Source: Parcubacteria group bacterium (GTDB lineage Bacteria; Patescibacteriota; Minisyncoccia; SW-4-49-11). From it: a stretch of DNA of 64,000 nucleotides. The DNA lies in NCBI GenBank assembly GCA_943354045.1, contig CALRBF010000001.1, positions 68,046 through 132,045 of the forward strand, in the 5' to 3' direction. Below, one piece after another: positions 4,455 through 58,345 of the stretch. The notes under the pieces are model-generated. The model was not told the origin of the DNA, did not search any database, and saw only the letters and a program-made list of their open reading frames with translations. The position numbers and the translations under genes are program-made. Position 1 is the first letter of the stretch. Each line of letters starts with the position of its first letter.

Positions 4455-5207
4455 TTATTGATTTACTTTGAATCTCACCTTACCAAATTCAGCTTTTGTA
4501 AAATTATCTTCAATAATCAATACATATTCTCCATTTTGAATATTGCGTCCATTAATATCTACAAAATTCCAATCAAATTTCCCTGTATTAATACGATTTT
4601 GAGCTAATACAAAACGCTCATTATCACTTTCAAGATATATATTTACAAAAAATATATCAGGAGTAAAGCTCCAAGAAATACTGTTATTCTCTTGATTGAA
4701 AATTTGTTTTTCCACTGGACTCGTAATAGTAAGATTTTGTTTTTCACGAATCAGAGCAAATATAGGAGATTGTCCTATATTTTGACTATTTTGTACTAAT
4801 ATAATTTGATATTGACCTGGCTCATAAGCTTTACTATTTATCTCAATAAAACCCCTATTAAACTTTTGCTGTCCTAAAGAATATTCTTTAAGCTGTGGCT
4901 TATCTGACAGAGAAGAATCAAGAGATACCAAAAAAACTTCAATTGGCTCTAAATAAACTTGACTTAATTCTAATTTGATTATATCCCCAATTTCAATATT
5001 CTGATATTGTCTAGGACTATTCACAGTTACTATTTTTTTAGGAGAAATAGTATTATTTTGATTAGATATGGGATTTTGTATATTTTCTTTATTAGTATAA
5101 ACAACAAAGATACGAGCTCCTATTATCAATACTAAAAATAAAACAATACCTATACTATAAAGTATATTATTTTTTATCCAATTTATAAATTGATTCCAAA
5201 ACATCAT
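4455..5207 (-). CDS. Hypothetical protein with an N-terminal transmembrane anchor
   Basis: 250-aa ORF with a single N-terminal hydrophobic helix. Its start overlaps the end of the upstream plsC-like gene. Confidence 0.35.
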   Translation of the reverse strand: MMFWNQFINWIKNNILYSIGIVLFLVLIIGARIFVVYTNKENIQNPISNQNNTISPKKIVTVNSPRQYQNIEIGDIIKLELSQVYLEPIEVFLVSLDSSLSDKPQLKEYSLGQQKFNRGFIEINSKAYEPGQYQIILVQNSQNIGQSPIFALIREKQNLTITSPVEKQIFNQENNSISWSFTPDIFFVNIYLESDNERFVLAQNRINTGKFDWNFVDINGRNIQNGEYVLIIEDNFTKAEFGKVRFKVNQ

Positions 5208-7424: not shown

Positions 7425-9134
7425 ATGTCTTCTCTATTTTCTCAGAAAATAATAACAATAATCGGAATATTTTTATTCGGATTTCTATTTATAGCACCTC
7501 ATATTACCTATGCTGACAACTTGTATGGGCAATCTTGTGGTACAAAAAAATGTAGTGGAGCTGAAGTGTGTCAAAAGCAATATAGAGGGGTATTACCTAT
7601 TGGAGCACAAAATGATGGAAATGCTACCTATACCTGTGTTAAGCCACAGAATATAGCGGCTCCAGATAGTCCCTATAAGGGAGTTCAGGCATCTTGTAGT
7701 GATGTATTTCAAAAAGCATTTGGGCTTGATTTAAGCTCACTTACTGGTTCAGTATTAACAGATACTCTCCAGGTTGGATTGGGACAAATAAAAAATAGTT
7801 TAGGCCTAGATGGAGTCGCATTTGGATATGATTCAAGGGGTCCTCAAGCTTTAAACCTTAATAATGTAGGATTAAACTGGAGTATAGATCCTACTAATCT
7901 TATTAATACCGATGCATCATTTTTCAAAGACTTTGTCCCAAAATGTGATAGTGCTTATAATAATATAAAAGGTATAATTAATACTAATTTCCTCGTAGCT
8001 CCCCTTCCTGTTGATATTTTTAATCCCCTACCTCTTCCAGTTAATGTTACCTCTCCCACTCCACTTCCAGTAATAGTAGTGGATGATTTAGCTCTTTATC
8101 AGCAAAAAGAATTAATTGATGCCCCTCTAGCCGCTCAACAAAAAGCAAAGACAATAGCGACCGTAAGCGATACTCTGAGATATCAAATTAGTGTGGACAC
8201 TTTAATTGTCAATAATTATTTTGCTATTAATCAGTTAGGAATACAATTTGGAGCATTAGATCCTAATACTGGAGTAGTATCTAAAGAAGCTATAGATAAA
8301 TATGGATCTTATCAGAATTTCTCATTAGATAAAAATAAAGAAATAGAACAATATTTTAAAGGTTTACAAGATCAAAAAAGTCAATTACCTGAGGAGGATT
8401 TTACCCAAAGTTGTGGAAATGTAAAGACGGAAGATGCAGCGAAAGTGAGTTTTGAATGTGGTATTTTAGCGACAAAAACCATAAATAATCCCAATGGTAT
8501 TGCCTTTAATATAGCACAAGTAGCTGCAGAAAAATCACAAAATGCCACCGAACTCCTTGATCAAGAAGTTCGTGATGGAAGTGGATATTTTGCAAAGACA
8601 GCAGATGGAGATAAGAACCCATTCACCAAAACTATTCAGACCCCAGGATCAAACATAGAATCTCTTACCAATAAAGTATTAGAGTCTACTGTGGATCAAG
8701 CTATTACTGCATCTGGAGACAATTGTTTTGAGGCAATTCCTAATAATATCCTCGAGGGGTCACTCAAACCCGTACTGACTCAAGGATTATTTGGAGTTAA
8801 TAATACTCTAGCATCAGTACAAAAAAATGTAACCTCTAATCCTGTTAACTCATTACAGAATCCTAGTGGTTTTGCTAATCAATTAACTTCTGGATTACAA
8901 GGTGCTATACCTGACCCTAATAAATTCTTCAAGTCTCTACAAAATTCATTATTACAAAATGTAACCAATGGATTATCTTGTGAGCTTAATAAGCAAGTTT
9001 CAGGGCTACTCAATGGAGCTCTCGGGAATATTAATATCCCAGGTATTGGTAATGTAAGTGGGGCATTAACGAATCAAGCCACAGGGGCTATAAATGGAGC
9101 TCTCAATAATGCTGTTAATGGACTTATACCATAA
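7425..9134 (+). CDS. Secreted protein with a signal peptide; Cys-containing N-terminal domain and an S/T/N/G-rich low-complexity C-terminus
   Basis: Signal peptide IITIIGIFLFGFLFIAPHITYA. The mature protein has a Cys cluster (CGTKKCSGAEVCQK...YTC) and a long polar region. It lies immediately upstream of the TrbL/VirB6-like gene. Confidence 0.4.
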   Translation: MSSLFSQKIITIIGIFLFGFLFIAPHITYADNLYGQSCGTKKCSGAEVCQKQYRGVLPIGAQNDGNATYTCVKPQNIAAPDSPYKGVQASCSDVFQKAFGLDLSSLTGSVLTDTLQVGLGQIKNSLGLDGVAFGYDSRGPQALNLNNVGLNWSIDPTNLINTDASFFKDFVPKCDSAYNNIKGIINTNFLVAPLPVDIFNPLPLPVNVTSPTPLPVIVVDDLALYQQKELIDAPLAAQQKAKTIATVSDTLRYQISVDTLIVNNYFAINQLGIQFGALDPNTGVVSKEAIDKYGSYQNFSLDKNKEIEQYFKGLQDQKSQLPEEDFTQSCGNVKTEDAAKVSFECGILATKTINNPNGIAFNIAQVAAEKSQNATELLDQEVRDGSGYFAKTADGDKNPFTKTIQTPGSNIESLTNKVLESTVDQAITASGDNCFEAIPNNILEGSLKPVLTQGLFGVNNTLASVQKNVTSNPVNSLQNPSGFANQLTSGLQGAIPDPNKFFKSLQNSLLQNVTNGLSCELNKQVSGLLNGALGNINIPGIGNVSGALTNQATGAINGALNNAVNGLIP

Positions 9135-20610: not shown

Positions 20611-21231
20611 ATGAAATCTATATTAGAAGCCCTCAATTGGCGCTATGCTACCGACAAATTCCTAAATACTGCCATCCCTGAGGATATATTATATACCATC
20701 ATAGAGGCGGCGCGTCTCGCCCCTTCATCTATGAATTTTCAACCATGGAAATATATCTCTATACAGTCTCCAGAAATTCGTAATCAAATATTCGAAGCTG
20801 GAGGAAAACAAGAAGCCATCAATGCTCCTACCCTACTAGTACTCACCATACCCAATATTCTCACTGCGGAAAGCGTAAATAATGTTGTTCTGGCTGCTGC
20901 TAAAGCTCGGAATGCCGATCCAGCTACTCTTGATGGATATCGTAATATGCTACAAGGCTTTATAGATACAACTGAACCTAATAAATTCTTTGATTGGAGT
21001 CGTAGACAAGCCTATATTTCACTAGGGATGCTATTACTTGCTGCCGCTCAACTCGAAGTGGATGCCGCCCCTATGGAAGGTTTTGATGCCACGAAAGTAA
21101 CCGAGATATTAGGGCTCAAAGATTATACCGCCGTAACTCTGATTGGACTTGGATACCGCAGCCCTGAAGATGATCATCAAAGCTGGCCAAAAGTCCGATT
21201 TGATATAGAGGAAATTTTGGAGGTGAGATAG
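20611..21231 (+). CDS. Nitroreductase family protein
   Basis: The N-terminal pattern LNWRYATDKF...IIEAARLAPSSMNFQPW is the classic nitroreductase/NAD(P)H-flavin oxidoreductase fold signature. Confidence 0.8.
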   Translation: MKSILEALNWRYATDKFLNTAIPEDILYTIIEAARLAPSSMNFQPWKYISIQSPEIRNQIFEAGGKQEAINAPTLLVLTIPNILTAESVNNVVLAAAKARNADPATLDGYRNMLQGFIDTTEPNKFFDWSRRQAYISLGMLLLAAAQLEVDAAPMEGFDATKVTEILGLKDYTAVTLIGLGYRSPEDDHQSWPKVRFDIEEILEVR

Positions 21232-21235: not shown

Positions 21236-21277
21236 TAAAAAAGAAAGAGCTTGATAAGCTCTTTCTTTTTTTATTTT
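21236..21277. terminator. Strong bidirectional intrinsic terminator
   Basis: AAAAAA-GAAAGAGCTT-GAT-AAGCTCTTTC-TTTTTTTATTTT. It is a 10-bp perfect stem flanked by an A-run and a T-run, lying between the nitroreductase gene (plus strand) and the tRNA-Ser-like segment (minus strand). Confidence 0.65.
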
Positions 21278-21298
21278 GGCGGAGAGAAAGGGATTCGG
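21273..21298 (-). repeat. 26-nt direct repeat duplicating the 3' end of tRNA-Ser (acceptor 3' strand plus part of the T-arm); the second copy is at 21477-21502 inside or next to the intact tRNA gene
   Basis: TATTTTGGCGGAGAGAAAGGGATTCG occurs at both sites. The first copy continues into a non-tRNA GC-rich segment. Confidence 0.6.
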
Positions 21299-21449
21299 TC
21301 ACAGATAATTTCCCTGGCGGGAAATTTCCGCGACCCCGTCTCGCCGTGTTCGCCTTGTACTCTGTACAAACTCACACCAGGCTCCGACTTTCTCTTCCCT
21401 ACGCCAGCAACACTGTTGCTAGCTTTCTCTCATCCAATCTAGAATATAT

Positions 21450-21473
21450 AAAATAGGGCTATAGCCCTATTTT
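21450..21473. terminator. Perfect hairpin immediately downstream of tRNA-Ser (minus-strand terminator)
   Basis: AAAATAGGGCT-ATA-GCCCTATTTT. This is a perfect 11-bp inverted repeat flanked by A and T runs. Confidence 0.55.
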
Positions 21474-21481
21474 ATATATTT

Positions 21482-21572
21482 TGGCGGAGAGAAAGGGATT
21501 CGAACCCTTGATAAGTTTTACCCTATGCCACGTTAGCAGTGTGGTGCTTTCGACCAGCTCAGCCATCTCTCC
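21482..21572 (-). tRNA. tRNA-Ser with anticodon GCU and a long variable arm
   Basis: The minus-strand read is GGAGAGATGGCTGAGCTGGTCGAAAGCACCACACTGCTAACGTGGCATAGGGTAAAACTTATCAAGGGTTCGAATCCCTTTCTCTCCGCCA. The anticodon loop is CTGCTAA (GCT). It has a long variable arm, a T-arm AAGGG/CCCTT and an encoded CCA. Confidence 0.85.
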
Positions 21573-21753
21573 ATAATTAAATTAACTATTATAGTTTACC
21601 TAAATTTTGATAATTTTGCAACTTATTCCTATTGAAAAATTATAGAATTATTATAAACTTGTAATTATTGATAGTTTACATTAAATCATAAGACAGGCAT
21701 ATTATTCCGCATTTTTATTCACCTATGCTATAATATAGATAAAATAATAGTAT

Positions 21754-27526: not shown

Positions 27527-28013
27527 TTATTGCAAAGATTTATATTCTTTTCCACCCCAACAAGCAAGCTTGTCACCCCTCTCTCCCTACGGGAGATAAA
27601 TTGAGGGGTGTGCCCATAGGGCGGGGTAGAGCACATAATTTGACCCTATAATAAGTATATGTTAGTGTATAAGTGACCACTTGCTGTGTTAATTTGTATC
27701 ACTCAGTTCAAGTCCGACCTCTTGTGCTCATGACTATTCCACCCTGATTAGGAGTTGACTAGCTATGAAACATTTTCCTTGTCCAGCAGAAGAGAATGCT
27801 ATCATTAACTTGATGGCTAGTAGCTCTTCTATCTCAGAATGGAAACGCAATGCTGAGACTATTCGGCATTGGTATAATGGAGCTTTTCCCCCATTCTGGA
27901 CCACCCTACTGTACGAAAAACCCAACAGTGAAAGTCAATCCGTATTTGAAAGAGCCCAATCCAAATGGCGATTGCGTCTATCCGGAAGAAAAGCTGGGCA
28001 TATTTGATTTGAG

Positions 28014-39971: not shown

Positions 39972-40856
39972 TTAATTGATAACACACCCAGCTGCATTCG
40001 CCATATTATAGACATCAGCACTACTTACATATTTTGTTTCTCCCACCCCAGCTGTACCACCCGATCCAGCTGCACCACCAGTTGCATAAAGGATCCCCTC
40101 ATATGTTGCGTACACATCCGGTTTAACGGGACCATCAACAATGCCTGCATTACTTCCGCACATATTTCCGCTGGAAAGAAAAGTATTGTTAATCCTACCA
40201 GTTCCTGTGTCAGCCTGTAAAGTTATAGATGTATTACCATCTTTGGTGATTTTCAATGCCGCCGCACCATCTCGATAACAATCCCCACCCGAACAATACC
40301 AAGTTACTCCCCATGGTGTCTCATACCTAAAATCAATGGAAAGTGGTGATAATGGGGTTGATTCTACTTGAATTAATCCAGAATCTTTTGTAACAGTGAT
40401 TGTTTTTTCCACCACTCCTGATCCTGTCAATTCTAATTGTATTGATTGTGCTGTGGATCTATTATTAGCAAAAGGTAATCCGAATTCAAATTTCCCTCCC
40501 GACTTAAATGTAGCACTTTGTAATACTATGTCTGCACCATAATAAGAGAGAGGAGTAGTAGTAGTACATGCCCCTGACTGCTCCACAACATAATAACTTC
40601 TAATTGTCTTTGGTGCAGTTACCTCCACCCCCATAGCACAAAGCTTATCATCAATTCCTATTCCAGTTAAATCACTTCGAGAAGGAGATAAAGCTCTATT
40701 CTGAGCTTGTCTAATAGCAGAAGTCACTGTTATTACATCTGACTTTAATTGTGCGCTACGCTGAGCAGTAACATAAGTCTGTATACCAATAACAGATAAT
40801 ATGGTGATAATGGAGATGGATACGATTAATTCTGCTAATGTAAATCCTTTTTTCAT
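39972..40856 (-). CDS. Type IV pilin (large, 294 aa) with an N-terminal prepilin signal
   Basis: Signal MKKGFTLAELIVSISIITILSVIG. The C-terminal globular region contains Cys pairs. Confidence 0.6.
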   Translation of the reverse strand: MKKGFTLAELIVSISIITILSVIGIQTYVTAQRSAQLKSDVITVTSAIRQAQNRALSPSRSDLTGIGIDDKLCAMGVEVTAPKTIRSYYVVEQSGACTTTTPLSYYGADIVLQSATFKSGGKFEFGLPFANNRSTAQSIQLELTGSGVVEKTITVTKDSGLIQVESTPLSPLSIDFRYETPWGVTWYCSGGDCYRDGAAALKITKDGNTSITLQADTGTGRINNTFLSSGNMCGSNAGIVDGPVKPDVYATYEGILYATGGAAGSGGTAGVGETKYVSSADVYNMANAAGCVIN

Positions 40857-41689
40857 TTTGATATATTATATATAATCCAATAATACCATATATTAGTACT
40901 TGGAACAAGCTGTACTTGAATTAAGGTATATATTATTACAAATGAAAGTATAATACTTGGTCCAAAAGCAATTTTTTGCTTGAGAGAAGAATTCCGATTC
41001 ATAAGCATTACAATTATGCCCCATATCATTCCTATCAAGAATGACCCAAAGAAAAATGGGACAAACCACATTAAGGGGATAAATAATCCCAATCCCGCAA
41101 ATAATTCCACATCCCCCCAACCTATACCTTGCTTTTTGGTAATAATATACAAGAATAATACAATACCAGCACTTAATAAAGCGGTAATAAGAGAATCTGG
41201 CATAATACGAGTTTGATAATACTCTAGACAGAAATATATTAGTCCCAATATTTGTATAGCACGTAGCTGAATTACGGAAATTAATTGATACTGCAAATCA
41301 TATACAAAGACAATAATAAGTTGAGTTATAAGAATATATATAATAAGCCCTCGTATATATTGTATTGGAGTAAATGTATACAGAGATATTAAATCCGGAA
41401 TATACAAATAAGCAAATCCTGTAAACAGTATCGCTGTTAATAATTCAACCAGAGGATATTGAAGAGATAGCTTCACTTCACATTCTCTACATCTACCTCT
41501 CTGTATAATATAAGAGAATAATGGTATCAGCTCATACCATTCAAGAGTATGATGACAACTCATACATTCTGATCTACCATTCCAGAATTTTTTCTCGGTA
41601 GTCATCCTGAATAATACCACATTCAAAAAACTCCCAATCCCAAGACCTAAAATAAATATTATTCCTAATATATAATATATTGCATCCAT
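40853..41689 (-). CDS. pilD: Prepilin peptidase (A24 family)
   Basis: Eight transmembrane helices are predicted. A cytoplasmic tetra-Cys zinc motif (CMSCHH...CRECEVK) is present. The catalytic region is GIGWGDVELFAGLGLF. Confidence 0.85.
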   Translation of the reverse strand: MDAIYYILGIIFILGLGIGSFLNVVLFRMTTEKKFWNGRSECMSCHHTLEWYELIPLFSYIIQRGRCRECEVKLSLQYPLVELLTAILFTGFAYLYIPDLISLYTFTPIQYIRGLIIYILITQLIIVFVYDLQYQLISVIQLRAIQILGLIYFCLEYYQTRIMPDSLITALLSAGIVLFLYIITKKQGIGWGDVELFAGLGLFIPLMWFVPFFFGSFLIGMIWGIIVMLMNRNSSLKQKIAFGPSIILSFVIIYTLIQVQLVPSTNIWYYWIIYNISK

Positions 41690-41780
41690 ATTATTCTATT
41701 TATCTGTATACACAATATATTCCAATTATTTTGATAGATAAAAGATTAAACAATCTTTTATCTATACAAAGTAATTTGAA

Positions 41781-42191
41781 TTATGGACACTGAGTTGCTG
41801 TATCAAGTACTATAAATGCAGCCGTATATGTTCTTGATTGTCCAGAACTATCTACACACCAACCTGCATAATCTGTTCCTGTTCTTCCATTATTTGCACC
41901 TACTACATAAGTATCATTAGTTGTTGTATCTGCTTGGGCGGTACCTCCATTACTGGAGATACTGGTTCTAATACTATCGAAGGCTTTATTACCAAATACA
42001 GGATAGTTAAGACCAGTTGCTGACAACTCCATTTGACTTTTAACTTGTGAAACAGCAGCTTGAATAGCTACGTTTCTAGCTCGTTGTCGAGCTGTGCTAA
42101 CATTTACCAATACCACTGCTGCTAAGATACCAATAATAGCAATAACAACCAAAAGCTCAATGAGTGTAAATCCTTTTTGTAACTGTTTCAT
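41781..42191 (-). CDS. pilA: Type IVa major pilin
   Basis: The N-terminus MKQLQKGFTLIELLVVIAIIGILAAVVLV is canonical. The C-terminal disulfide pair is C...C. Confidence 0.8.
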   Translation of the reverse strand: MKQLQKGFTLIELLVVIAIIGILAAVVLVNVSTARQRARNVAIQAAVSQVKSQMELSATGLNYPVFGNKAFDSIRTSISSNGGTAQADTTTNDTYVVGANNGRTGTDYAGWCVDSSGQSRTYTAAFIVLDTATQCP

Positions 42192-42232
42192 TTGTTTACA
42201 CCCCCTTTCTGTATATATTTCATATATATATA

Positions 42233-43450
42233 TTAAATTGAACCTGCTATATTGTAAACAGGAAGCAATATAGATACTACAAATATTGCAACACCAATTC
42301 CGAGAGTCACTATCATAACCGGTTCTACTAATATGGTTAAATTATTTACTACATTATCTACTTCTTTTTTATAAAATCGTGATAATGTATCTAATACAGA
42401 GGTAATTTTACCTGTTTTCTCCCCCACAGATATGATTTGAGATGCAACATAAGGAAATTCCTTATGCCGCAAAAGAGCTGTAGATAATTGTCCCCCACCT
42501 TTTATAGAATTAATTGCATCCTGAATAATATTCCTAAATACAAGATTCCCCACTACTACGGAACTAATTTCAAGAGCCGTAATAATAGGAACTCCTCCTT
42601 GCAATAAAGTTTTCATATTAGATGCAAAACGGGTTACATATAATTTGGTAAATAAAGACCCAAAAATTGGTAATCTTAATTTCCATTTATCTGACCATCT
42701 TACACCCCCCTCTGTACGAATAAATAATATAAATCCTCCTATTAGGAGTATAAATCCTCCTAATATAAACCATACATATTGTTGTAATATTTCAGATCCA
42801 AGAATAATGAGTTGTGTTGTCCAAGGTAATTGCACATCTGTCCCTAAATCATTAAGAACTTGTACTAATTGTGGTAGGACAAAATATGCGATACCAAGTC
42901 CAATAACAAAAAACACTAATAATACAAATACCGGATAAGCTAAAGCCCCTTTAATTTTATTATTTAAGTCATATTGTCCTTCTAGATAATTTGCCATATA
43001 TAAAAAAGATTCCTGTAATCCCCCCGCAGCCTCTCCAGACCTTGCCATAGAAACATATAATTGACTAAATACTTTTGGATGCTTCGCCATTGCCTCAGAT
43101 AGCAAATTACCATCCTGTACATCAGCTATTAGCTGATCTAATACTACCGTAAAATATTTATTTTTCTTATTCTGTTCCCGTATTAACGATAAAGCCTCCA
43201 CAAGAGGAATTTGCACCTCCAAAAATGTAGCTAATATACGAGAGAATACTACTAATTCTCTATCTGATACTCTATTGAATATTTCTAAATCTTGTTTAAA
43301 AACAGATTGTTGATTTGTATTTTTAAGAGAAATAATAATGAGACCTTTTGACTGTAAATCTGTAATAGCAATATCTTCATTAGGAGCTGTTATAAAACCT
43401 TGTATAGTACTCCCACTTTGTGATTTTGCTAAGTAACTAAATTTTAACAT
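42233..43450 (-). CDS. pilC: Type IV pilus inner-membrane platform protein (GspF family)
   Basis: Two GspF repeats with 3 transmembrane helices are present. The length and N-terminus are typical of PilC. Confidence 0.85.
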   Translation of the reverse strand: MLKFSYLAKSQSGSTIQGFITAPNEDIAITDLQSKGLIIISLKNTNQQSVFKQDLEIFNRVSDRELVVFSRILATFLEVQIPLVEALSLIREQNKKNKYFTVVLDQLIADVQDGNLLSEAMAKHPKVFSQLYVSMARSGEAAGGLQESFLYMANYLEGQYDLNNKIKGALAYPVFVLLVFFVIGLGIAYFVLPQLVQVLNDLGTDVQLPWTTQLIILGSEILQQYVWFILGGFILLIGGFILFIRTEGGVRWSDKWKLRLPIFGSLFTKLYVTRFASNMKTLLQGGVPIITALEISSVVVGNLVFRNIIQDAINSIKGGGQLSTALLRHKEFPYVASQIISVGEKTGKITSVLDTLSRFYKKEVDNVVNNLTILVEPVMIVTLGIGVAIFVVSILLPVYNIAGSI

Positions 43451-43462
43451 ATATATAATCTA

Positions 43463-44536
43463 TTATGATGTTGACCTTTTTAACATATTTCTAAGATTTA
43501 TTGGGTCTGGAGAGTATAATAATGCTGTTTCAAAAGAAACAATTCCTGTTCTTATGAGATCAAATAATGATAAATTCATAGACACCATACCCTCTTTACG
43601 ATGAGTTTCTATCACAGTATCTAATTGATATATTCGATTTTCTCGAATAAGACTTTTTACCGCATTATTGGCTAGTAAAATTTCAAGAGCTGGAGTAAGA
43701 TCTCCATTTACGGTCGGAATCAGTCTCTGAGAAATTACAGCCTGTAATGAATTAGATATTTGAGATCTTACTTGTCCTTGTTGATGAGTAGGAAATGTAT
43801 CAATAACTCTATCTATAGATTGAGAAGCGCTATTAGTATGCAAAGTTGAAAACACTAAATGCCCTGTCTCAGCAGCAGTAACTGCAACTTGCACGGTATT
43901 TAAATCTCTCATTTCCCCAAGGAGAATGACATCTATATCCTGACGAAATGATGATTCAAGAGCATTCGTAAAGCTATTGGTATCATATCCAACCTCTCTT
44001 TGAGTAATAATACTTTTATCAGAACTATATATAAACTCAATTGGATCTTCAATGGTAACAATTTTTACATCTCTTGTATGATTGATCTCATTGATAATAG
44101 AGGCTAATGTAGTAGATTTTCCTGAACCTGTAGGACCTGTAACTAGTACTAATCCTTGCATTAGTTGAGAAAATTGATGCATTATGGATGGCAACCCTAA
44201 TTGTTCAAATGTTAAAATTGCTGGTGGCAAATATCTCATTACCAAATTAGGATTAGCTTGAGCTATAAAGGCATTTACACGAAATCGAGCATTAAGCTCA
44301 AGAAATGTATATGCAAAATCTTGCTCTTCTCCCTGATACAATGCCATTAACTGATCTTCTCTTAGAATATATTTTAACAATTCATCAAGAGATTCTTTTG
44401 TTAAAACAGGCTGATCCTCTAGAGTAACTAATCTATTCTTAACTCTTAATACAGGCTTAATTCCTGTACTAAGATGTATATCAGATCCTTTTGCATTTAC
44501 TATTTGTGTTATTATTGTACTAAGGTTTATCAACAT
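43463..44536 (-). CDS. pilT: Type IV pilus retraction ATPase
   Basis: The Walker A is LVTGPTGSGKSTT, the Asp box is VKIVTIEDPIEF and the His box is HLVFSTLHTN. The 357-aa size is typical of PilT. Confidence 0.85.
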   Translation of the reverse strand: MLINLSTIITQIVNAKGSDIHLSTGIKPVLRVKNRLVTLEDQPVLTKESLDELLKYILREDQLMALYQGEEQDFAYTFLELNARFRVNAFIAQANPNLVMRYLPPAILTFEQLGLPSIMHQFSQLMQGLVLVTGPTGSGKSTTLASIINEINHTRDVKIVTIEDPIEFIYSSDKSIITQREVGYDTNSFTNALESSFRQDIDVILLGEMRDLNTVQVAVTAAETGHLVFSTLHTNSASQSIDRVIDTFPTHQQGQVRSQISNSLQAVISQRLIPTVNGDLTPALEILLANNAVKSLIRENRIYQLDTVIETHRKEGMVSMNLSLFDLIRTGIVSFETALLYSPDPINLRNMLKRSTS

Positions 44537-44541
44537 ATTTT

Positions 44542-44928
44542 TTATATTTTAGATATTGATAAATACTTTTGCACTATACGCATTACCTCAGTAGGAGTAT
44601 AGTTTGACTTCACAATACAATCAACCGCACCTAATTCGAAAGCTTGATTAATATCAGCTTGTGAAGACAAATTACTTAATACTACAACTGGAATATTTTT
44701 TAGATCAGATTCTTTTTTCACCCATTTCAACACATCAAATCCACTCACATCGGGAAGTATAAGATCAAGAAGAATTAAACTAATTTGTTTGCTATTTTTA
44801 CTAAGAATATCTTTAACCTCCGCATGATTAGCAGCAGTAAAGACACCGTAGCCTAATTCATCAATTTTCATAGCATACATCTGTGTAATAAAACTATCAT
44901 CCTCAATCAATAATATTTGATTTTTCAT
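44542..44928 (-). CDS. Single-domain response regulator (CheY-like receiver)
   Basis: Receiver-domain signatures are ILLIEDD...LILLDLILPDVSGFDVLKWV...VVVLSN...K. It sits between pilB and pilT. Confidence 0.75.
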   Translation of the reverse strand: MKNQILLIEDDSFITQMYAMKIDELGYGVFTAANHAEVKDILSKNSKQISLILLDLILPDVSGFDVLKWVKKESDLKNIPVVVLSNLSSQADINQAFELGAVDCIVKSNYTPTEVMRIVQKYLSISKI

Positions 44929-44983
44929 ATATATTTATTTACTCTTATTCTATATTGATAATATCATATGTTTATTATTTTGC

Positions 44984-46699
44984 CTATACCTCTATGGTTG
45001 TTAATAACTCAGGCAAAGAAAGATATCCTTGCAATACCTTGAATATTCCATCTTGTTTTAAGGTAATATAATTATTGGCTCGAAGATATTCAAAAACTTC
45101 TTTTTCATTGAATTTTTTTTCTACAATCGCCTGTAACTCTGGAGTCATGACTACTACTTCAAAAATAGACATTCTCCCCTTGAACCCATTACTACATTTA
45201 GGACATCCAACTGGAGTATATATTGAGTCATAGCCACCAGTATATATTTCCTGTATACAATCATTACTCAATGAAGCAATAGCTTCTTGAATATATTCTT
45301 TTTCTTTTCCTTCCAAAGGCACTTCTTTTTTACAATATTGACATAGTTTTCTTACTAATCGCTGAGCAATAACTATTTGAAGCGATGCAGAAAGTAAAAA
45401 TGGTTCAACTCCCATATCAATAAGACGAGGTAATGCTCCTGGAGCATCATTAGTATGCAATGTTGAGAATACAATATGTCCTGTCAAAGCTGACTGTACC
45501 GCTAGCCCCGCTGTTTCACCATCTCGGATTTCTCCTACCATAATAACATCTGGATCCTGCCTCAAAATTGATCTAAGTCCAGAAGCAAAAGTATAATTTA
45601 TTTCTGGCTTTACCTGAGACTGATTAACTCCAGATAAATAGTATTCTATTGGATCCTCTAATGTCACAATATTAATATCATCCGTATTAATTTGTGATAA
45701 CAGAGTATAAACTGTTGTTGATTTACCCGATCCCGTTGGTCCTGTTAATAGAATCATACCAAATGGTTTTTTGATTGCTTCTTGAATCAAGTCTACTCGA
45801 GGACCAATAAATCCTAATTGCTCTAATGATCTAACACCGCCCGAAGTATCTAAAATTCTCAATACTACCTTTTCTCCATATTGGGTAGGGAAAGTCGATA
45901 CACGAAAATCTACTTTTTTATCTTTATCTAAAATAGAAAATCTTCCATCCTGGGGCTTTCTTTGCTCATCAATTTTGAGATTTGATAAAATTTTAATACG
46001 AGCAACAATGGGAGAATAGGCTTCTTTTGGTAAAATCAAACTAGTATGTAATACTCCATCTACACGAAATCTTACCCGTACTGATTCATCAGTTCCTTCA
46101 ATATGTATATCTGATGCTCCCCCTTCTACGGCATTTTTAATAATAACAGATACAATTTTGATAATAGGAGCACTTTCTAAATTTTTTGTTGTAATACCTG
46201 TGGTATCTGGGAGTATTTGTTCTGCTTTATTTTTTTGATGAAATTCCTCAAGATTTTCTGTAACTGCATTTTTTAAATTCTCTGCCTTTTTAAGAGCCTT
46301 TTTAATATCTGATTCTATTGCAACAAATAACTCAAAGGATAATTTTTTTTCTTGAAAAATAAACTTAATAGCTTGTACAGCAGTATAATTTTGTGGGTCA
46401 GCAATAGCGATAGAAATAGTATTATTTTCTTGTGCAAAAGGAATTAAGGTATATCTTTTCATAATATTAATCGAAAAAATATCATACAATTCTTTTGGTA
46501 TACTAATATTCTCTAAATCTATAAATTCTAATCCCAAAATCTGAGCATTTACTGTTATTAATTCTTTTTCCGTAAAATTTTTCTCGAGAAAGGCTTTAAT
46601 TTCTGATTCTGGGATAGTATCAAAAGAAGATATAGCCTTAAACTTATCAGGGAACTCATTTTTTAATAGTTCAAATGTTTTTTTTAAATCTAACTGCAT
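44984..46699 (-). CDS. pilB: Type IV pilus assembly ATPase (GspE family)
   Basis: An N-terminal GSPII_E_N domain is present. The Walker A is ILLTGPTGSGKSTT, and a tetracysteine motif (CQYCKK...CPKC) is present. The start was set at MQLDL (ATG at 46699) so that it does not overlap the upstream small ORF. Confidence 0.9.
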   Translation of the reverse strand: MQLDLKKTFELLKNEFPDKFKAISSFDTIPESEIKAFLEKNFTEKELITVNAQILGLEFIDLENISIPKELYDIFSINIMKRYTLIPFAQENNTISIAIADPQNYTAVQAIKFIFQEKKLSFELFVAIESDIKKALKKAENLKNAVTENLEEFHQKNKAEQILPDTTGITTKNLESAPIIKIVSVIIKNAVEGGASDIHIEGTDESVRVRFRVDGVLHTSLILPKEAYSPIVARIKILSNLKIDEQRKPQDGRFSILDKDKKVDFRVSTFPTQYGEKVVLRILDTSGGVRSLEQLGFIGPRVDLIQEAIKKPFGMILLTGPTGSGKSTTVYTLLSQINTDDINIVTLEDPIEYYLSGVNQSQVKPEINYTFASGLRSILRQDPDVIMVGEIRDGETAGLAVQSALTGHIVFSTLHTNDAPGALPRLIDMGVEPFLLSASLQIVIAQRLVRKLCQYCKKEVPLEGKEKEYIQEAIASLSNDCIQEIYTGGYDSIYTPVGCPKCSNGFKGRMSIFEVVVMTPELQAIVEKKFNEKEVFEYLRANNYITLKQDGIFKVLQGYLSLPELLTTIEV

Positions 46700-46700
46700 A

Positions 46701-46883
46701 TTATAACTTAAAATAACTACTAATAGTATCAAAGCTAGGTGCTACTATATCGGTATCCCCAACAGATATATGATTTAATATAATAGCAAATATTTGATAT
46801 CCAAAATAGCCTACAGCTATAATACTAACTGATACTATAATGAATTTGTGATACCTTTCAATAATTTGAGATATATTTTTCAT
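46701..46883 (-). CDS. Small membrane protein within the pilus operon
   Basis: 60-aa ORF with one transmembrane helix (FIIVSVSIIAVGYFGYQIFAIIL). Confidence 0.3.
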   Translation of the reverse strand: MKNISQIIERYHKFIIVSVSIIAVGYFGYQIFAIILNHISVGDTDIVAPSFDTISSYFKL

Positions 46884-46885
46884 AT

Positions 46886-47416
46886 TTATTTATAATATGT
46901 TATTGCATTAATAGTTCCCTCTATATTATCTAGGCCTTTATCAAAAGATAAGCTAACGGTATTCACCCCTATATATCGCTTTGATTGTGTTAATTTCTGT
47001 AAAAAAGTATATATTTCTCTTTTACCTCCAGTTATTTTTAATGAAATATTCACTGGTCTTAATGTATTAATAGAAGTATTATTGGTATCTAAGTTATTAG
47101 TATCTTTTATTAGTGAACCTTGCTCATCTACAGAGATGGAAGCTATTTCAATATTAGATTCTCTTTCAAATTGTGTAAATTCTGTTGTAATCGCGGTCTT
47201 ATCCAGTGAATCTGGTGTGAATTCATTCATTCTTTTTGCCAATTCTGAGGGCGATTTTTGATCAGCAAATGATTGGGTAATTTGTGTTTTTTTCTGTAAT
47301 TCTTTTACTCCAGAAAATTTACTTGTCAAAAAATCAGTATAAAAATTAGTTATTGTCCAAATCAAAGCAATAAATATAATACAGAATGAAATGGATAAAA
47401 GGGTTTTTTGATTCAT
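46886..47416 (-). CDS. PilO-like pilus assembly protein
   Basis: A bitopic architecture (N-terminal transmembrane helix, coiled coil, C-terminal domain) together with its position between pilN-like and pilB genes. Confidence 0.5.
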   Translation of the reverse strand: MNQKTLLSISFCIIFIALIWTITNFYTDFLTSKFSGVKELQKKTQITQSFADQKSPSELAKRMNEFTPDSLDKTAITTEFTQFERESNIEIASISVDEQGSLIKDTNNLDTNNTSINTLRPVNISLKITGGKREIYTFLQKLTQSKRYIGVNTVSLSFDKGLDNIEGTINAITYYK

Positions 47417-47421
47417 ATCAT

Positions 47422-48003
47422 CTACTTTAACTTAATCAATATATCAAGATTAACTCCACTACCCTCAGAATTCTTCCTAATATCTGAGTAAGAAGCATCT
47501 ATAACACCTTTAACCTCCTTTATCTTAGATATTTGAGAATTAGCATCATCAAAAGAAAGCGCTTGTGCTGAAAGAATAATAGTCTTTTTTTGTCTATTAT
47601 ATACCCAAGAACTTGTTTTAAACCCAGTAGTATATGTTGCTTCAATTTCTTTCATAATTTCAACTGGATTATATGTTTGAGAAATCAATGTATTCACATT
47701 ATACACTGTTTTTTCTAAATCATCTTTTGGATAATATACACTATTTCTTACATTTAAATCTGATAAAATTTGATTATATTCATTCGTAGGCTTTATAATA
47801 TAAACCCAATAAACAGCACCTAATACTCCTATATATGTAATTAATGTCAATATAAATCCAATAATATACCCCCGATACGGATGTTCTTTTTGCGTCATTA
47901 CATATCCCTCTAAACCCTTTTGTCTATTAGGAATAAAGCTAATATTTTCCATATTATTCGACATAATCTTTAAGTGAAATACCAATTGACAATACCAAAT
48001 CAT
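47422..48003 (-). CDS. PilN-like pilus assembly protein
   Basis: A short cytoplasmic N-terminus, a transmembrane helix (YIIGFILTLITYIGVLGAVYWVYII) and a periplasmic domain. The true start is probably an internal ATG at 47952 or 47964, since the longest ORF overlaps pilM. Confidence 0.5.
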   Translation of the reverse strand: MIWYCQLVFHLKIMSNNMENISFIPNRQKGLEGYVMTQKEHPYRGYIIGFILTLITYIGVLGAVYWVYIIKPTNEYNQILSDLNVRNSVYYPKDDLEKTVYNVNTLISQTYNPVEIMKEIEATYTTGFKTSSWVYNRQKKTIILSAQALSFDDANSQISKIKEVKGVIDASYSDIRKNSEGSGVNLDILIKLK

Positions 48004-49024
48004 GCCAAATTGTATGCAGAACTTCCTTATCCTTCACCCCTTTAATAGTCAAATTAGAATAGGGTTCTGCAACAGTAATGGTAATTTTTTGACTTACTCC
48101 TAATTGATTATTAATAACTAAATCAACAAATTCGCGAATACCCTCCATTTTAGCAAATCCACCAAGTAATACAATATCTTGTATTTTTTCTTCATTATTA
48201 TCCTGAAACTGTCTTATAATAGGCAATACTTCATTCTCAAAAAAGCTTTTGATGCCCGATTGTATTAGGGCTGATATATCTGAGTTAGAGCCAGACATCC
48301 CATTATCTTTCTTTATTTTTTCTGCTTCTATACTGGATATATTATGAGAAGATGCAATTTTATCAGTAATATGATTCCCCCCAAAATCAAATGATTGTAT
48401 TAATTGTAATTGTTTGTCAGCACTTACAATACTTACTGTACTAGTTCTGGCACCAATATCTACAATACATACTTGAGTATTGGGTAAATCAATAGAACGA
48501 ATAATGGAGAAGGTATCTAATTCAAATCCTTTAATAGTAATACCCAGAGCTCTACTTACTTCAATATACGTATTTACCACACTATTAGGAATGGCAATAA
48601 GGAGTACATTTAATTTATCTTTTTCCTTATTGGGTCCCAAATTCATCCAATCTAATTGCACACTGCTTAAAGAAATAGGAATATGTTGTTTTGCCTCAAA
48701 CGGTACAGCTGTTGCTAATTCCTCATAGGAAAGAATTGGGAAAGGGACAACTGCTGAAAAAGCTAAATAGGATGGAATAGCAATATATGCCTCCTTTATT
48801 TCCATTTTAGCAGCATTAAGCATAGCTTGTATAATGGTAGTAATCTGAGATACAGAAATAGTATGCTCCCCGTTTTTCTCTTGAATAATATTATCTAAGT
48901 CATCATCCCAAATACTATAATTAATCACGGATATTTTACTTCCTCGCTTTTGAACTTCAGAAATTTTAATAGTTTGAGTACCAATATCAATACCAAACGA
49001 ATTTTTTGCTCCTAATCCTAACAT
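47954..49024 (-). CDS. pilM: Type IV pilus assembly ATPase-like protein PilM (actin/HSP70 fold)
   Basis: The N-terminus SFGIDIGTQTIKISEV is typical of PilM. The size and its pairing with pilN are also typical. Confidence 0.8.
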   Translation of the reverse strand: MLGLGAKNSFGIDIGTQTIKISEVQKRGSKISVINYSIWDDDLDNIIQEKNGEHTISVSQITTIIQAMLNAAKMEIKEAYIAIPSYLAFSAVVPFPILSYEELATAVPFEAKQHIPISLSSVQLDWMNLGPNKEKDKLNVLLIAIPNSVVNTYIEVSRALGITIKGFELDTFSIIRSIDLPNTQVCIVDIGARTSTVSIVSADKQLQLIQSFDFGGNHITDKIASSHNISSIEAEKIKKDNGMSGSNSDISALIQSGIKSFFENEVLPIIRQFQDNNEEKIQDIVLLGGFAKMEGIREFVDLVINNQLGVSQKITITVAEPYSNLTIKGVKDKEVLHTIWHDLVLSIGISLKDYVE

Positions 49025-56418: not shown

Positions 56419-56548
56419 GTATTATACCCTATCTTCATGTAAAATGAAAATCCCCAGTTGCAAAGCAACCGGGGACATAGAGTAAAACCAGAAATGGTCA
56501 AGGCGACTGCTCCCCGTGAGGGGTTAGTTGCTATCATTTTAGGTTTTC

Positions 56549-57769
56549 TTAGAAACGGAGGCCAGCGCGAAGCGTGGCGGCAAGACCATCACCGGAGGTG
56601 CCCGAGTTGTACCCGAGAACACCTTCAGCATAGGCGTTCTTGCTGATGCCGACCTGGAGACCACCGCCCACTTGGACATTGTGGTAGCCATCGCCGACCT
56701 CTCCTCGGACCTCTCCGAAGGGACGCCACTGACCACTCTTGGTCAGATAATAACGGCCATAGCCATTGGCATAGGCTCCGGTATTGTTCACACCGACCTC
56801 AGCAAAAACTTCAGTCTGCTGAGTGCGAGACCAGAGACCAGTTTTAGCGTTGAACGCCAAGCCGGACTCGCCAGCCACCGTAGCAGCACCCTCACCCTCA
56901 ACAAAGACAGTAAATTGCTGATACTTGTTCTGAACGAGATCTCGCTCGAGTCGAGCCCTAACACCCAATTGGGTGATCGGCTTGGCCGGGTTTTTCCAGG
57001 TATAGACATAGGGATACTCCATACCCGGACGGCTCTTGCCCTCACCAGAATCGGTATGAGTCAACTGACGGCCGAAGCCGACAACAGACCACCGAGTACG
57101 GGCATCTTGGGAGCGTCCATGAATACCTGCCCAGAATTCCAGACGGGAATCCGTATAGGACCCCTTCCAGATTTCTTTCAGGTTATCACCTGTGAAGCTA
57201 CCCGACTGAGTGACATATTGCACACCACTCATGAAGCCCTTGGCGGTAACAAACTCAGCTTTCACATCGAAGGCCGTATCCCGCGGACGGGAACGGAATT
57301 CTGTATGAAGACGGAATGGGTTCCACTTCCCTTCTCCCTGTTGCGGAATGGAATCCCGAGGAGGGACCACAATTCCAGTATTGGGAGTGGTGGAAGCGGG
57401 AGCAACGGCAACTGGGGCAGCAACCTGAATTACCGGGATAACCGGCGGAGGGCCAGGCTGTTGCTGTGATGAAACACCATTACGCTCAGCTTCCAGACGC
57501 ATGCGAATAGCACGGATCTGAGCTGCTTCCTCTCGAGTCGAGAGACGCCGAACTGAAGCGGTGGCGAGAGTATTGGTGACGACCGTGGAGGTCGCCGATT
57601 GAGGAACTGTAGCGTTCAACTCCTCCGCCTTGACACCCATGGGGGCACCAAGGAGAGGAAGAGCAAAGGCCAACAGTCCCAAGATGGTACGCTTTTTCAC
57701 AGCGACCTCCTGGTAAAGAACCCCCTTACAGTAGCATAAAAACACCATTTTGTCAATAGTTAACAACAT
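56549..57769 (-). CDS. Putative outer-membrane beta-barrel protein with an N-terminal coiled-coil and Pro-rich linker (GC-rich island gene)
   Basis: The signal peptide is KKRTILGLLAFALPLLGAPMGVKA (the true start is probably downstream of the ORF-track ATG). A helical segment (EEAAQIRAIRMRLEAERN) and a PGPPPVIPVIQVAAPVAVAP linker follow. The C-terminal 280 aa show alternating-hydrophobic beta-strands and end in GLRF. A C-terminal Phe is the OMP beta-barrel signature. Confidence 0.5.
   Translation of the reverse strand: MLLTIDKMVFLCYCKGVLYQEVAVKKRTILGLLAFALPLLGAPMGVKAEELNATVPQSATSTVVTNTLATASVRRLSTREEAAQIRAIRMRLEAERNGVSSQQQPGPPPVIPVIQVAAPVAVAPASTTPNTGIVVPPRDSIPQQGEGKWNPFRLHTEFRSRPRDTAFDVKAEFVTAKGFMSGVQYVTQSGSFTGDNLKEIWKGSYTDSRLEFWAGIHGRSQDARTRWSVVGFGRQLTHTDSGEGKSRPGMEYPYVYTWKNPAKPITQLGVRARLERDLVQNKYQQFTVFVEGEGAATVAGESGLAFNAKTGLWSRTQQTEVFAEVGVNNTGAYANGYGRYYLTKSGQWRPFGEVRGEVGDGYHNVQVGGGLQVGISKNAYAEGVLGYNSGTSGDGLAATLRAGLRF
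57730..57760 (-). promoter_or_regulatory. Promoter-like conserved motif upstream of the OMP-like gene
   Basis: In the minus sense the sequence is TTGACAAAATGGTGTTTTTATGCTAC. A near-identical 26-mer lies upstream of the 58908..59717 gene, and a variant (TTGACAAAATTGATAAAATATGCTAG) lies upstream of 57842..58294. Confidence 0.45.
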
Positions 57770-57841
57770 CTCAAATAGTGTCGGAAGAGAATAAAAAAAG
57801 CCCCCACGAGATGTGGGGGTAATTGGTGTTCAGGACTGGCC

Positions 57842-58243: not shown

Positions 58244-58299
58244 TTTACCACGAAACGACTTAGGGACTCTAGCATATTTTATCAATTTTGTCAAGAGTA

Positions 58300-58345
58300 A
58301 ACAGCATAAAAAAATACCGGCAGCTATTGCTACCGGCTTGAGAAT
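58300..58345 (-). terminator. Intrinsic terminator downstream of the N/Q-rich protein gene
   Basis: In the minus sense the sequence is GCCGGTAGC-aata-GCTGCCGGT (9 bp including 2 G-U pairs) followed by ATTTTTTT. Confidence 0.45.

Follow-up and report, generated by a model that had tools for sequence, protein, structure and literature searches.

A strongly folded, non-coding module of roughly 165 nt, bounded by a duplicated tRNA-Ser tail, was identified next to the tRNA-Ser(GCU) gene of a Parcubacteria group bacterium. The module recurred just downstream of at least six different tRNA genes in related uncultured bacteria (Paceibacteria), ending in a copy of the 3' end of the local tRNA, although in one locus this copy had decayed. 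We therefore read it as an undescribed tRNA-linked element and not as a random integration scar. The module, here named E1, occupies positions 21272-21440 (minus strand) of the window, the stretch of 64,000 nt that was analyzed (contig CALRBF010000001.1 of assembly GCA_943354045.1). Related loci from other contigs are designated by L numbers (L001 and so on).

The duplicated tRNA 3' end and the enclosed segment

ARAGORN and Rfam (RF00005, 56.1 bits) placed an intact tRNA-Ser(GCU) with CCA encoded at 21482-21572 on the minus strand. The 26-mer TATTTTGGCGGAGAGAAAGGGATTCG (CGAAUCCCUUUCUCUCCGCCAAAAUA on the minus strand) occurred exactly twice, at 21477-21502 (copy 1) and 21272-21297 (copy 2). No copies appeared in 100 shuffles, and no others were found in the window with up to 3 mismatches. 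The first-pass annotation had reported this duplication, and the observation was confirmed, although its coordinates were off by one. The 26-mer is also not the last 26 nt of the tRNA, as had been stated, but comprises tRNA positions C56-A76 (21 nt) plus 5 nt of 3' trailer (AAAUA in copy 2). The idea of a dispersed repeat was rejected, since the 26-mer and the E1 motifs occurred nowhere else in the window and the other three tRNAs had no tail copies.

The enclosed segment reached a GC content of 0.55-0.60, against 0.34 for the window. The minus-strand read folded at -73.8 kcal/mol (z = -6.5), and 0 of 200 shuffles folded as well. The 9-bp terminal complementarity GAGAGAAAG/CUUUCUCUC and the hairpins AGCAAC-AGT-GTTGCT and TTGTAC-AGA-GTACAA were seen as previously described. 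Of the two palindromic terminator-like hairpins, the one at 21237-21271 was called by a consensus scan. This 16-bp bidirectional hairpin closes the E1 unit and the convergent nitroreductase gene (20611-21231, plus strand). The other, an AT-rich palindrome at 21444-21476 (AAAAUAGGGCUAUAGCCCUAUUUU) between the tRNA and E1, was not called by that scan and rests on reading the palindrome in the sequence. It looks like a terminator for the tRNA, and a similar hairpin followed the tRNA-Ser of L016, which lacks E1.

Predicted structure of E1

The E1 5' strand UGGAUGAGAGAAAG (21423-21436, minus strand) is complementary to the tRNA-derived 3' tail (CUUUCUCUC..CCA) and is predicted to form an acceptor-stem-like outer helix in this clade. 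It is followed by the P1 hairpin GCUAGCAAC-AGU-GUUGCUGGC (21403-21423, minus strand), and every E1 unit had a hairpin at this position. The P0 5' strand AGGGA (21396-21400, minus strand) pairs with UCCCU, the T-stem 3' strand at the start of repeat copy 2, and closes the core. The core helix P-b (21338-21388, minus strand) consists of GUC/GAC, GCC/GGC and GUGU/ACAC around the UUUGUAC-AGA-GUACAA hairpin, and is flanked by the conserved GAGAAAG and AAGGCGAAC / GAGACGGG joints. The core hairpin P-c (21298-21335, minus strand) is a long hairpin with a bulged A, conserved G-U pairs and a CCGYCAGG tip, and ends in GUGAC directly at the junction with the tRNA-derived repeat.

The core structure was supported by compensatory changes. 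Across 14 aligned sequences, 93.5% of pair cells formed standard pairs, with 6 pairs and 21 cells compensatory, whereas 0 of 500 shuffles reached this and slid controls gave 30-47%. In P-b, CG changed to GC at pair 15-50, and UA/AU changed to CG/GC in the apical hairpin (L027 and L055). In P-c, GC changed to AU at pair 67-92 and AU to GC at pair 68-91, and a strain-level CG to AU change was found in L003/L004. The closing helix covaried with the identity of the adjacent tRNA: 6 of 11 pairs had changes on both sides, and at most 9 of 500 shuffles matched the observed values on the covariation and pairing measures. The sense strand folded 18 kcal/mol better than the antisense strand in the window, and 7-18 kcal/mol better among the units compared.

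The acceptor-type helix was not universal in the family. It was present in the window and L040 (7-9 bp plus GCCA), shorter in L043 and L042, where the equivalents matched their own tRNA acceptor strands, and absent in L041, L027, L054 and L055. The T-arm is not intact, since the T-stem-like helix encloses the ~97-nt core and only C56-U60 of the loop is kept.

Distribution of E1 downstream of tRNA genes

The E1 core was found next to tRNA-Ser(GCU) (window, L007, L040, L041 and L011), Ser(UGA) (L043), Gly(UCC) (L042), Leu(UAA) (L027 and L038), Gln(CUG) (L039, L055 and L056) and Arg(UCG) (L054). In all of these loci the core was located directly downstream of the tRNA. In L009, the core was separated from an inverted tRNA-Ser by a 191-aa gene and lay within about 800 bp of this rearranged tRNA. 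All E1 loci came from searches seeded with E1 sequence, so these counts do not give the family size or the copy number per genome. The hits of the covariance model used in these searches rest on sequence similarity, because its stored structure was shifted by one column and gave meaningless pair counts; the correct structure was supplied explicitly for the pair counts given above.

In all ten measured loci the repeat started at C56 (tRNA ..GGTT|C versus E1 ..TGTGAC|C), which places the junction at T-loop position 55/56. The repeat matched the local tRNA exactly for 20-33 nt, or for the whole unit in tandem arrays, except that it had decayed in L039; in L054 the match was read directly from the sequence. 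It ended 0-5 nt past the tRNA 3' end except in tandem arrays, although the locus-specific trailer bases reached 13 nt in L042. In the lineages of L041-L043 the genes lack CCA.

Presence, absence and inferred transfer of units

A second, unrelated module (E2, 176 bp), bounded by the 30-nt repeat GGGTTCGAATCCCTTTCTCTCCGCCAAAAT, was present between the tRNA and E1 in L002-L005 and absent in the window, L001 and L006, although the nitroreductase protein was identical. Only two haplotypes were seen. Four short contigs began 276 nt upstream of the 147-aa gene, about 10 bp from the nearest repeat copy as judged from the geometries of the two haplotypes and not from their sequence. E2 was 97.8-98.3% identical in L017 and L023, whose flanking genes were 71-76% identical, and L007 kept a hybrid hairpin that marks loss of E2. 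In the L037-type locus the distal E2 repeat lacked CCA, and the host type lacks encoded CCA.

E1 was absent at the syntenic tRNA-Ser in L014-L016, and L042 had a paralogous tRNA-Gly without E1. Tandem arrays occurred in L027 and L054, and L055 had a three-repeat array with an unrelated module. Truncated E1 copies occurred in L009, L011 and L038, three of about 13 copies. At the syntenic site E1 was more conserved (86-93%) than the flanking coding DNA (74-76%). Identity to L014 dropped from 95% on one side of the tRNA (the 147-aa gene) to 72-75% on the other, pointing to recombination around the tRNA. The window also encoded type IV pilus genes and RecG.

Searches for known families, recombinases and coding capacity

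No curated Rfam family (release 15) matched E1 at the gathering threshold. The window and 21 loci gave only tRNA and rRNA matches, and E-value searches of the region gave only chance-level hits, with no tRNA or tmRNA match (RF00005/RF00023) to E1 even at E <= 10. ARAGORN likewise called only the true tRNA. Scans of viral contigs for the tandem repeat and for the E1 and E2 cores, and blastn of E1 against phage and plasmid collections, returned nothing. Literature searches found no description of such elements. RNase P, SRP, 6S and tmRNA identities were considered because of short motif resemblances such as GAAAGUC, and were rejected on size, on fold and on the lack of Rfam or ARAGORN hits. A T-box or riboswitch leader was rejected because the downstream genes are unrelated and, in the window, convergent.

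The unit (155-205 bp) contained no gene. No recombinase, transposase or reverse transcriptase was found among the 50 window ORFs scanned, and no recombinase was found among the precomputed Pfam families listed for the called genes around the syntenic loci; ORFs within 3.5 kb of five other loci were listed only, without assignment to families. It is very unlikely that the segment instead encodes a small protein on the plus strand (ORF 21251-21442, 63 aa). One frame of the strand opposite the tRNA was open for 46-60 codons in seven homologues, but there was no consistent start codon, and the sense frame was equally open, as expected for GC-rich DNA in an AT-rich genome. In addition, no Pfam match was found, substitutions in helices were compensatory, and gene callers did not call it in six contigs.

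Possible origin and function of E1

The first-pass annotation had interpreted the two repeats as attL/attR of a tyrosine-integrase element that may later have been deleted, and this interpretation was only partly supported. The repeat does have the anatomy of a tRNA-site insertion, starting in the T-loop and running to the tRNA 3' end as at classical tRNA integration sites, E2 is bounded by the same repeat and present or absent among near-identical strains, and the gene content of the neighborhood varied among relatives. However, a remnant left after deletion, with decaying junk from the element ends between the repeats, was not supported and is unlikely, being already largely refuted by the conserved boundaries. 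The enclosed unit had the same left and right boundaries at six tRNA species in unrelated contexts, which independent deletions would not produce, and no integrase-bearing occupied site appeared among about 50 loci. Its structure showed covariation, an outcome named beforehand as refuting the scar idea. The annotation's alternative, a small tRNA-derived structured RNA, is closer, although expression of E1 can only be inferred.

We consider, with moderate confidence, that E1 is one copy of a family of compact, non-autonomous, cassette-like structured modules that are gained and lost immediately 3' of tRNA genes in Paceibacteria/Parcubacteria. The analysis itself establishes the anatomy of a unit: a short spacer and the P1 hairpin, a strand complementary to the T-loop/T-stem 3' half of the neighboring tRNA, the ~97-nt conserved core of a three-part helix plus a long bulged hairpin, and, fused at ..GUGAC|C56.., a copy of that tRNA from T-loop position 56 to its 3' end plus 0-5 nt of trailer, which pairs back onto the 5' strand and closes the fold. 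It also establishes that the units act as discrete, dispensable cassettes, which are present or absent between close strains, stack in arrays, duplicate in tandem, are often truncated and sit behind different tRNAs in different genomes. How they move, and whether they are expressed, is inferred. Gain and loss may occur by recombination using the duplicated tRNA 3' segment, either through a trans-acting site-specific recombinase crossing over in the T-loop or through RecA-type recombination after DNA uptake, with the conserved tRNA and its duplicated tail acting as portable homology arms. The unit would be read through from the tRNA promoter as a structured RNA on the tRNA strand. Several findings weigh against this view. 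No excised form or attP was seen, and a circle of 155-205 bp is an unlikely integrase substrate. An incoming element would not be expected to carry locus-specific trailer bases, and moving to a new tRNA species should produce a chimeric, non-functional tRNA, with no route around this shown. In about half the loci a terminator-like hairpin separated the tRNA from E1, and no promoter for E1 was recognized. Strong core conservation and compensatory evolution fit a vertically inherited RNA gene equally well.

It is possible, though less favored, that E1 is such a vertically inherited, trans-acting small RNA gene with a tRNA-like handle. The tRNA-derived tail and its complementary 5' strand would then define and protect the RNA ends, for example through processing by RNase P, RNase Z or the CCA-adding enzyme, and identity with the neighboring tRNA would be maintained by local duplication or gene conversion, not by insertion. 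The compensatory changes, the covariation of the 5' strands with the tRNA tail, the conserved G-U pairs, the more stable sense strand, the conservation of E1 relative to its flanks, the acceptor-like helix with a 3' GCCA in the window clade and a terminator following E1 in the window and L040 agree with this reading. On the other hand, truncated and missing copies, tandem and mixed arrays, the lack of the acceptor-like helix in four units, the absence of a recognized promoter and terminators upstream of E1 in several loci argue against it. Moreover, the T-loop is interrupted by the core, so tRNA-recognizing enzymes that need the elbow would not bind, and the unrelated E2 core shares the same tRNA-tail architecture and is clearly polymorphic or transferred. 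Like the tmRNA tRNA-like domain, bacterial YrlA and eukaryotic mascRNA, E1 in the window clade has a 3' end identical to a tRNA acceptor/T-stem strand, paired to a 5' strand and ending in GCCA, and it lies on the same strand as a tRNA and next to it. It differs from them in having no D arm or anticodon arm, a T-loop split by the core and a tail that copies whichever tRNA is adjacent.

It is also unlikely that E1 is a miniature single-strand-DNA transposon, like the non-autonomous PATE derivatives of IS200/IS605, that would use subterminal hairpins (P1 and P-c), insert 3' of GGTT in the T-loop with a replacement tRNA 3' end at its left end, and be mobilized by a transposase encoded elsewhere. 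The invariant insertion point, the strand-specific, imperfect, bulged hairpin abutting the right end, the lack of coding capacity and the possibility that precise excision would restore the tRNA are consistent with this, and such features are shared with PATEs and REP/BIME elements. However, PATE-type elements make no direct repeats and are dispersed at many short target sites, whereas E1 carries a long repeat and was found only at tRNAs. No Y1 transposase was found in the window, the Rfam IS605-associated RNA families did not match, and the acquisition of each tRNA's tail by the left end is not explained.

Compared with attL/attR repeats of tRNA-targeting integrative elements, whose tyrosine integrases cross over in the T-loop, E1 shares the direct repeat of the tRNA 3' segment, starting in the T-loop and ending at or just past the tRNA 3' end, the intact tRNA, the accretion of units in arrays and the presence/absence polymorphism between strains. 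It differs in its size, the lack of an integrase or any other gene, the fixed, covarying core found at six tRNA species with matching repeats, and the locus-specific trailer bases, and no full-length parent was seen. CIMEs, cis-mobilizable elements described in streptococci, are also non-autonomous DNA bounded by att-type repeats at the 3' end of a conserved gene, in tandem with other units, and would depend on functions supplied in trans, but they are kb-sized decayed islands with genes, whereas E1 is a sub-200-bp folded module with a sequence conserved across lineages. An integron cassette was not supported: by eye, the junction reads GTGAC|CGAATCC and the T-loop reads GTTCGAA, which does not fit the GTTRRRY of attC (R''/R' boxes RYYYAAC/GTTRRRY), and no integrase was found in the window.

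A more speculative and rather unlikely possibility is that E1, E2 and the 'E3' module are cassettes of a previously unrecognized, enzyme-in-trans insertion system using the T-arm of tRNA genes as its attachment site. The folded single strand (DNA or RNA) would rebuild, through P0, the same duplex as the T-loop/T-stem 3' half of the tRNA gene, and would present a structural mimic of the target to a recombinase, in the way integron attC sites do, or to a reverse-transcription or template-switching process primed on the T-loop. This would explain together the invariant 55/56 junction, the tRNA-matched inverted strand and the tRNA-matched direct repeat. In a variant of this idea, the core is a self-processing RNA that cuts at GUGAC|C56.

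Partial tRNA 3' duplications are routinely read as dead integration scars, whereas here the DNA between the repeats is a conserved, covarying module that follows at least six tRNA species in the Candidate Phyla Radiation, copies the tail of the tRNA and also carries the complementary strand. If it is mobile, it is the smallest kind of tRNA-site cassette and works without an enzyme of its own, which raises the question of whether a trans recombinase or plain homologous recombination after DNA uptake, using the tRNA as a universal homology arm, moves it. If it is an RNA gene, it is a new tRNA-linked RNA class in organisms with almost no characterized non-coding RNAs. In either case, E1 provides a concrete sequence and structure model to search for, and marks tRNA 3' ends as hot spots of genome change in these reduced genomes.

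E1 also partly resembles GC-rich hairpin-forming miniature elements of AT-rich reduced genomes, such as yeast mitochondrial GC clusters, Rickettsia palindromic elements and sponge mitochondrial repetitive hairpin elements (PMC2800124), in being a GC-rich, hairpin-dense, non-coding module in a small AT-rich (34% GC) genome. Organellar and rickettsial elements are dispersed and have at most very short target duplications, whereas the E1 copies seen were tRNA-linked and end in a long cognate tRNA-derived repeat. E1 was not dispersed, but the E2-type and other modules in related contigs were modular, mosaic, multi-copy and dispersed, and one such module fragment was located at 27546-27636 of the window.

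Duplicated 3' end of tRNA-Ser(GCU) and the enclosed segment

As shown by ARAGORN and Rfam, tRNA-Ser(GCU) is located at 21482-21572 on the minus strand. The 26-mer TATTTTGGCGGAGAGAAAGGGATTCG occurred exactly twice, at 21272-21297 and 21477-21502. No further copies were found with up to three mismatches, and none appeared in shuffled sequence. On the tRNA strand the repeat reads CGAAUCCCUUUCUCUCCGCCA plus AAAUA, corresponding to tRNA positions 56-76 plus five trailer bases. The duplication reported in the first-pass annotation was therefore confirmed, although its coordinates were off by one and the repeat, described there as the last 26 nt of the tRNA, is not purely tRNA. The segment between the two copies, termed E1, reached 55-60% GC, while the window averaged 34%. 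Its minus-strand read folded at -73.8 kcal/mol (z = -6.5), which was 18 kcal/mol better than the opposite strand. Palindromic terminator-like hairpins were located at 21237-21271 and 21444-21476; only the first was called by the consensus terminator scan, and the second rests on reading of the sequence. No Rfam family matched the segment, even at E <= 10.

Named homologues of the neighboring 645-aa protein came from Candidatus Parcubacteria / Minisyncoccia MAGs, and contigs carrying the identical nitroreductase came from groundwater metagenomes. The flanking genes encoded a nitroreductase (20611-21231, convergent with E1) and a 147-aa membrane ORF. Fifty ORFs of the window were scanned against Pfam. 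They included housekeeping genes, a type IV pilus cluster and RecG, but no integrase, transposase or reverse transcriptase was found among them. The pilus cluster (40856-49024) comprised genes for a prepilin peptidase, a pilin with an N-methylation motif, a PilC-like protein, two PilB/PilT-like ATPases and PilM. This could be DNA-uptake machinery, which is relevant here only as context for gain of modules by recombination.

A second unit that varies between strains

Contigs with the identical nitroreductase protein and near-identical intergenic DNA fell into two haplotypes. One matched the window, and the other contained 176 extra bp between the tRNA and E1. The extra unit, termed E2, had a different, GC-rich and well-folding core and was bounded by the 30-nt repeat GGGTTCGAATCCCTTTCTCTCCGCCAAAAT. 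E2 was not present in the window but was found on related contig L002 (3868-4047), on L003-L005, on L017 (4242-4422), and on L023, L036 and L037. Four short contigs began 276 nt upstream of the 147-aa gene; by the geometries of the two haplotypes, and not from the sequence of these contigs, this lies about 10 bp from the nearest repeat copy. A break near the repeat is what within-sample heterogeneity at that point would produce. Within E1, strains L003 and L004 carried UUUACC...GGUAAA where the window has UUUCCC...GGGAAA, a compensatory CG to AU change, and strain L006 was the single-change intermediate.

E2 was 97.8-98.3% identical, including its AT-rich hairpin, in L017 and L023, whose flanking genes were 71-76% identical to those of L002 and whose tRNA upstream regions barely aligned. 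The E2 core also occurred free of tRNAs, for example at L007 2056-2144 and on contigs L024 and L032, apparently as a unit of ~220 nt ending in a terminator. In loci L020-L035 (for example L021 12376-13000 and L027 12700-13250), GC-rich mosaic intergenic regions of 200-600 nt were built from recurring hairpin modules. Some of these were bounded by inverted GTAGGGGCGAC...GTCGCCCCTAC ends and contained the E2-type core. They look like a family of modular miniature elements in Parcubacteria, often next to variable or defence-type genes.

Orthologous loci

Locus L007, with 92% amino acid identity in the 645-aa protein, retained E1 at 98.8% identity, but E1 was followed by an epimerase gene. The hairpin between its tRNA and E1 was a hybrid of the E2-side and E1-side hairpins, which marks a deletion that removed E2. 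Locus L040, with 76% nucleotide identity in the flanking genes, retained E1 at 93%. Locus L011 retained only the first ~80 nt of the core (86% identity), fused to a fragment of an unrelated small gene, and L009 contained a 5'-truncated E1 separated from an inverted tRNA-Ser. Loci L014, L015 and L016 had the tRNA but no E1. Identity to L014 jumped from 95% (147-aa gene) on one side of the tRNA to 72-75% on the other, and the tRNA is therefore a recombination breakpoint.

A second kind of mobile insertion was observed at the same tRNA gene, at its 5' end. On the minus strand of L016 (4195-4560), a GIY-YIG nuclease ORF (Pfam PF01541, E = 9e-15, with one in-frame TAG) plus GC-rich hairpins was inserted between the tRNA-Ser promoter and the tRNA, with the first 9 nt of the tRNA (GGAGAGGTG) duplicated. 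The tRNA-Ser(GCU) 3' ends also differed among loci. Loci carrying an intact E1 or E2 unit (window, L002, L007, L017, L023 and L040) encoded the CCA end (..CTCCGCCA), while loci with no intact unit (L014 and L016 with neither unit, and L011 with only a truncated E1 core) did not (..CTCCGCATT, ..CTCCGCCG, ..CTCCGCTG). The distal E2 repeat in L037 also lacked CCA. This hints that the tRNA-side copy may be supplied by the module.

The E1 family at other tRNA genes

An exact-pattern scan of species-representative genomes with a conserved E1 23-mer gave five loci. A covariance-model search of all collected sequence added two more; the structure in this model was shifted by one column, and its hits rest on sequence. 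A search with the translated E1 frame, used to pick up spuriously called ORFs, added three more. Every copy was located directly downstream of a tRNA gene on the same strand, with the rearranged L009 as the only exception. The tRNA genes were Ser(GCU) in the window, L007, L040, L041 and L011, Ser(UGA) in L043, Gly(UCC) in L042, Leu(UAA) in L027 and L038, Gln(CUG) in L039, L055 and L056, and Arg(UCG) in L054.

In all ten measured units the core ended ..TGTGAC and was followed by C56 of the local tRNA, where the tRNA itself reads ..GGTT|C56. The copy matched the local tRNA exactly for 20-33 nt and stopped 0-5 nt after the tRNA 3' end, unless the whole unit was tandemly repeated (L027 and L054). 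The copy had decayed in L039, and the match in L054 was read from the sequence because automated T-loop detection failed there. L055 carried three copies of the tRNA-Gln tail, one in the tRNA, one after E1, and one after an unrelated GC-rich mosaic module, and a truncated second E1 followed. L042 carried two paralogous tRNA-Gly(UCC) genes (4943-5016 and 7527-7600), each leading a paralogous secreted or membrane protein gene. Only one of them carried E1, which gives a comparison of a filled and an empty site.

Predicted structure of E1

In the 14-sequence core alignment, 93.5% of pair cells were standard pairs, and six pairs and 21 cells showed changes on both sides. The covariation score was 0.144 against 0.095 in shuffles (0 of 500 reached it), and slid controls gave 30-47% pairing. 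Examples were CG to GC at the base of the core helix P-b, UUUGUAC/GUACAA becoming UUUGUGC/GCACAA (L027) or UUUGCGC/GCGCAA (L055), and GC to AU and AU to GC in the core hairpin P-c.

The strand just upstream of the conserved GAGAAAGUCGG was complementary to the first 5-10 nt of the tRNA-derived tail and changed with the tRNA. The pairs were AGGGA with UCCCU for Ser(GCU), GAGGGAU with AUCCCUC for Gly, GGGACUUG with CAAGUCCC for Leu, GGGGUUCG with CGAACCCC for Arg, and GAGGAU with AUCCUC for Ser(UGA). In a fixed register, 70% of cells paired and 6 of 11 pairs changed on both sides, while between 1 and 9 of 500 shuffles matched the observed values on the covariation and pairing measures. In the window clade a further 5' strand (UGGAUGAGAGAAAG) paired with the acceptor 3' strand and CCA in the predicted fold, but this outer helix was short or missing elsewhere.

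Interpretation and comparison with known elements

We were able to show that E1 is a discrete, conserved, structured and non-coding unit found at tRNA 3' ends in every copy seen apart from the rearranged L009, with an invariant T-loop junction and with a tail and anti-tail that match the local tRNA. The analysis also established that such units are dispensable, stack, duplicate and decay, and that a sister unit is polymorphic within a population and nearly identical across divergent hosts. This excludes a random deletion scar and also argues against an essential housekeeping RNA. The interpretation in the first-pass annotation was thus only partly supported, since the repeat does share the anatomy of tRNA att repeats, whereas the proposed remnant of a deleted element was not supported.

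Gain and loss of the units by recombination through the duplicated tRNA tail, in contrast, is inferred. A trans-acting site-specific recombinase would fit the repeat anatomy. Homologous recombination after DNA uptake would need no dedicated enzyme and would use the conserved tRNA as the left arm and the tail copy as the right arm; it also fits the mosaic identity around the tRNA and the pilus and RecG genes in the window. The inferred recombination does not explain how a unit acquires the tail of a new tRNA and the matching complementary strand without passing through a chimeric tRNA, or why the repeats include locus-specific trailer bases. The strand asymmetry, the conserved G-U pairs and the co-orientation with the tRNA suggest that the fold matters as RNA, in a read-through transcript, or as one particular DNA strand. 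Transcription of E1 is likewise only inferred, since half the loci have a terminator-like hairpin between the tRNA and E1.

The nearest known elements are the tRNA att repeats of integrative elements and the integrase-less, att-flanked CIMEs, which share the repeat anatomy with E1 but differ completely in size and content. tRNA-like RNAs share a partial resemblance, but E1 does not fulfil their defining features of a recognised tRNA-like domain and an intact T-arm, and the acceptor-like helix is present in only some units. GC-rich hairpin miniature elements of AT-rich reduced genomes share the composition and modularity but differ in targeting. No curated RNA family, phage, plasmid or viral contig matched E1, and the literature searches found no description of such an element. 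A new insertion mechanism based on structural mimicry of the T-arm target remains a minority possibility.

Other GC-rich regions of the window

A 3.2-kb block at 56500-59720 had 56-72% GC, compared with 34% for the window, and was located between glycosyltransferase genes. It contained four minus-strand ORFs (406, 150, 151 and 269 aa as listed; the 150- and 151-aa ORFs were scanned from a downstream ATG as 132 and 142 aa) with signal-peptide-like N-termini and no Pfam match. This block is either foreign DNA or an assembly chimera. A GC-rich (0.59) intergenic island of ~90 nt was located at 27546-27636 and contained a hairpin module (CCCCTCTCTCCCTACGGGAGATAAATTGAGGGG) that matched modules of the mosaic elements in L025, L028, L022 and L017 at 86-89% over about 30-35 nt.
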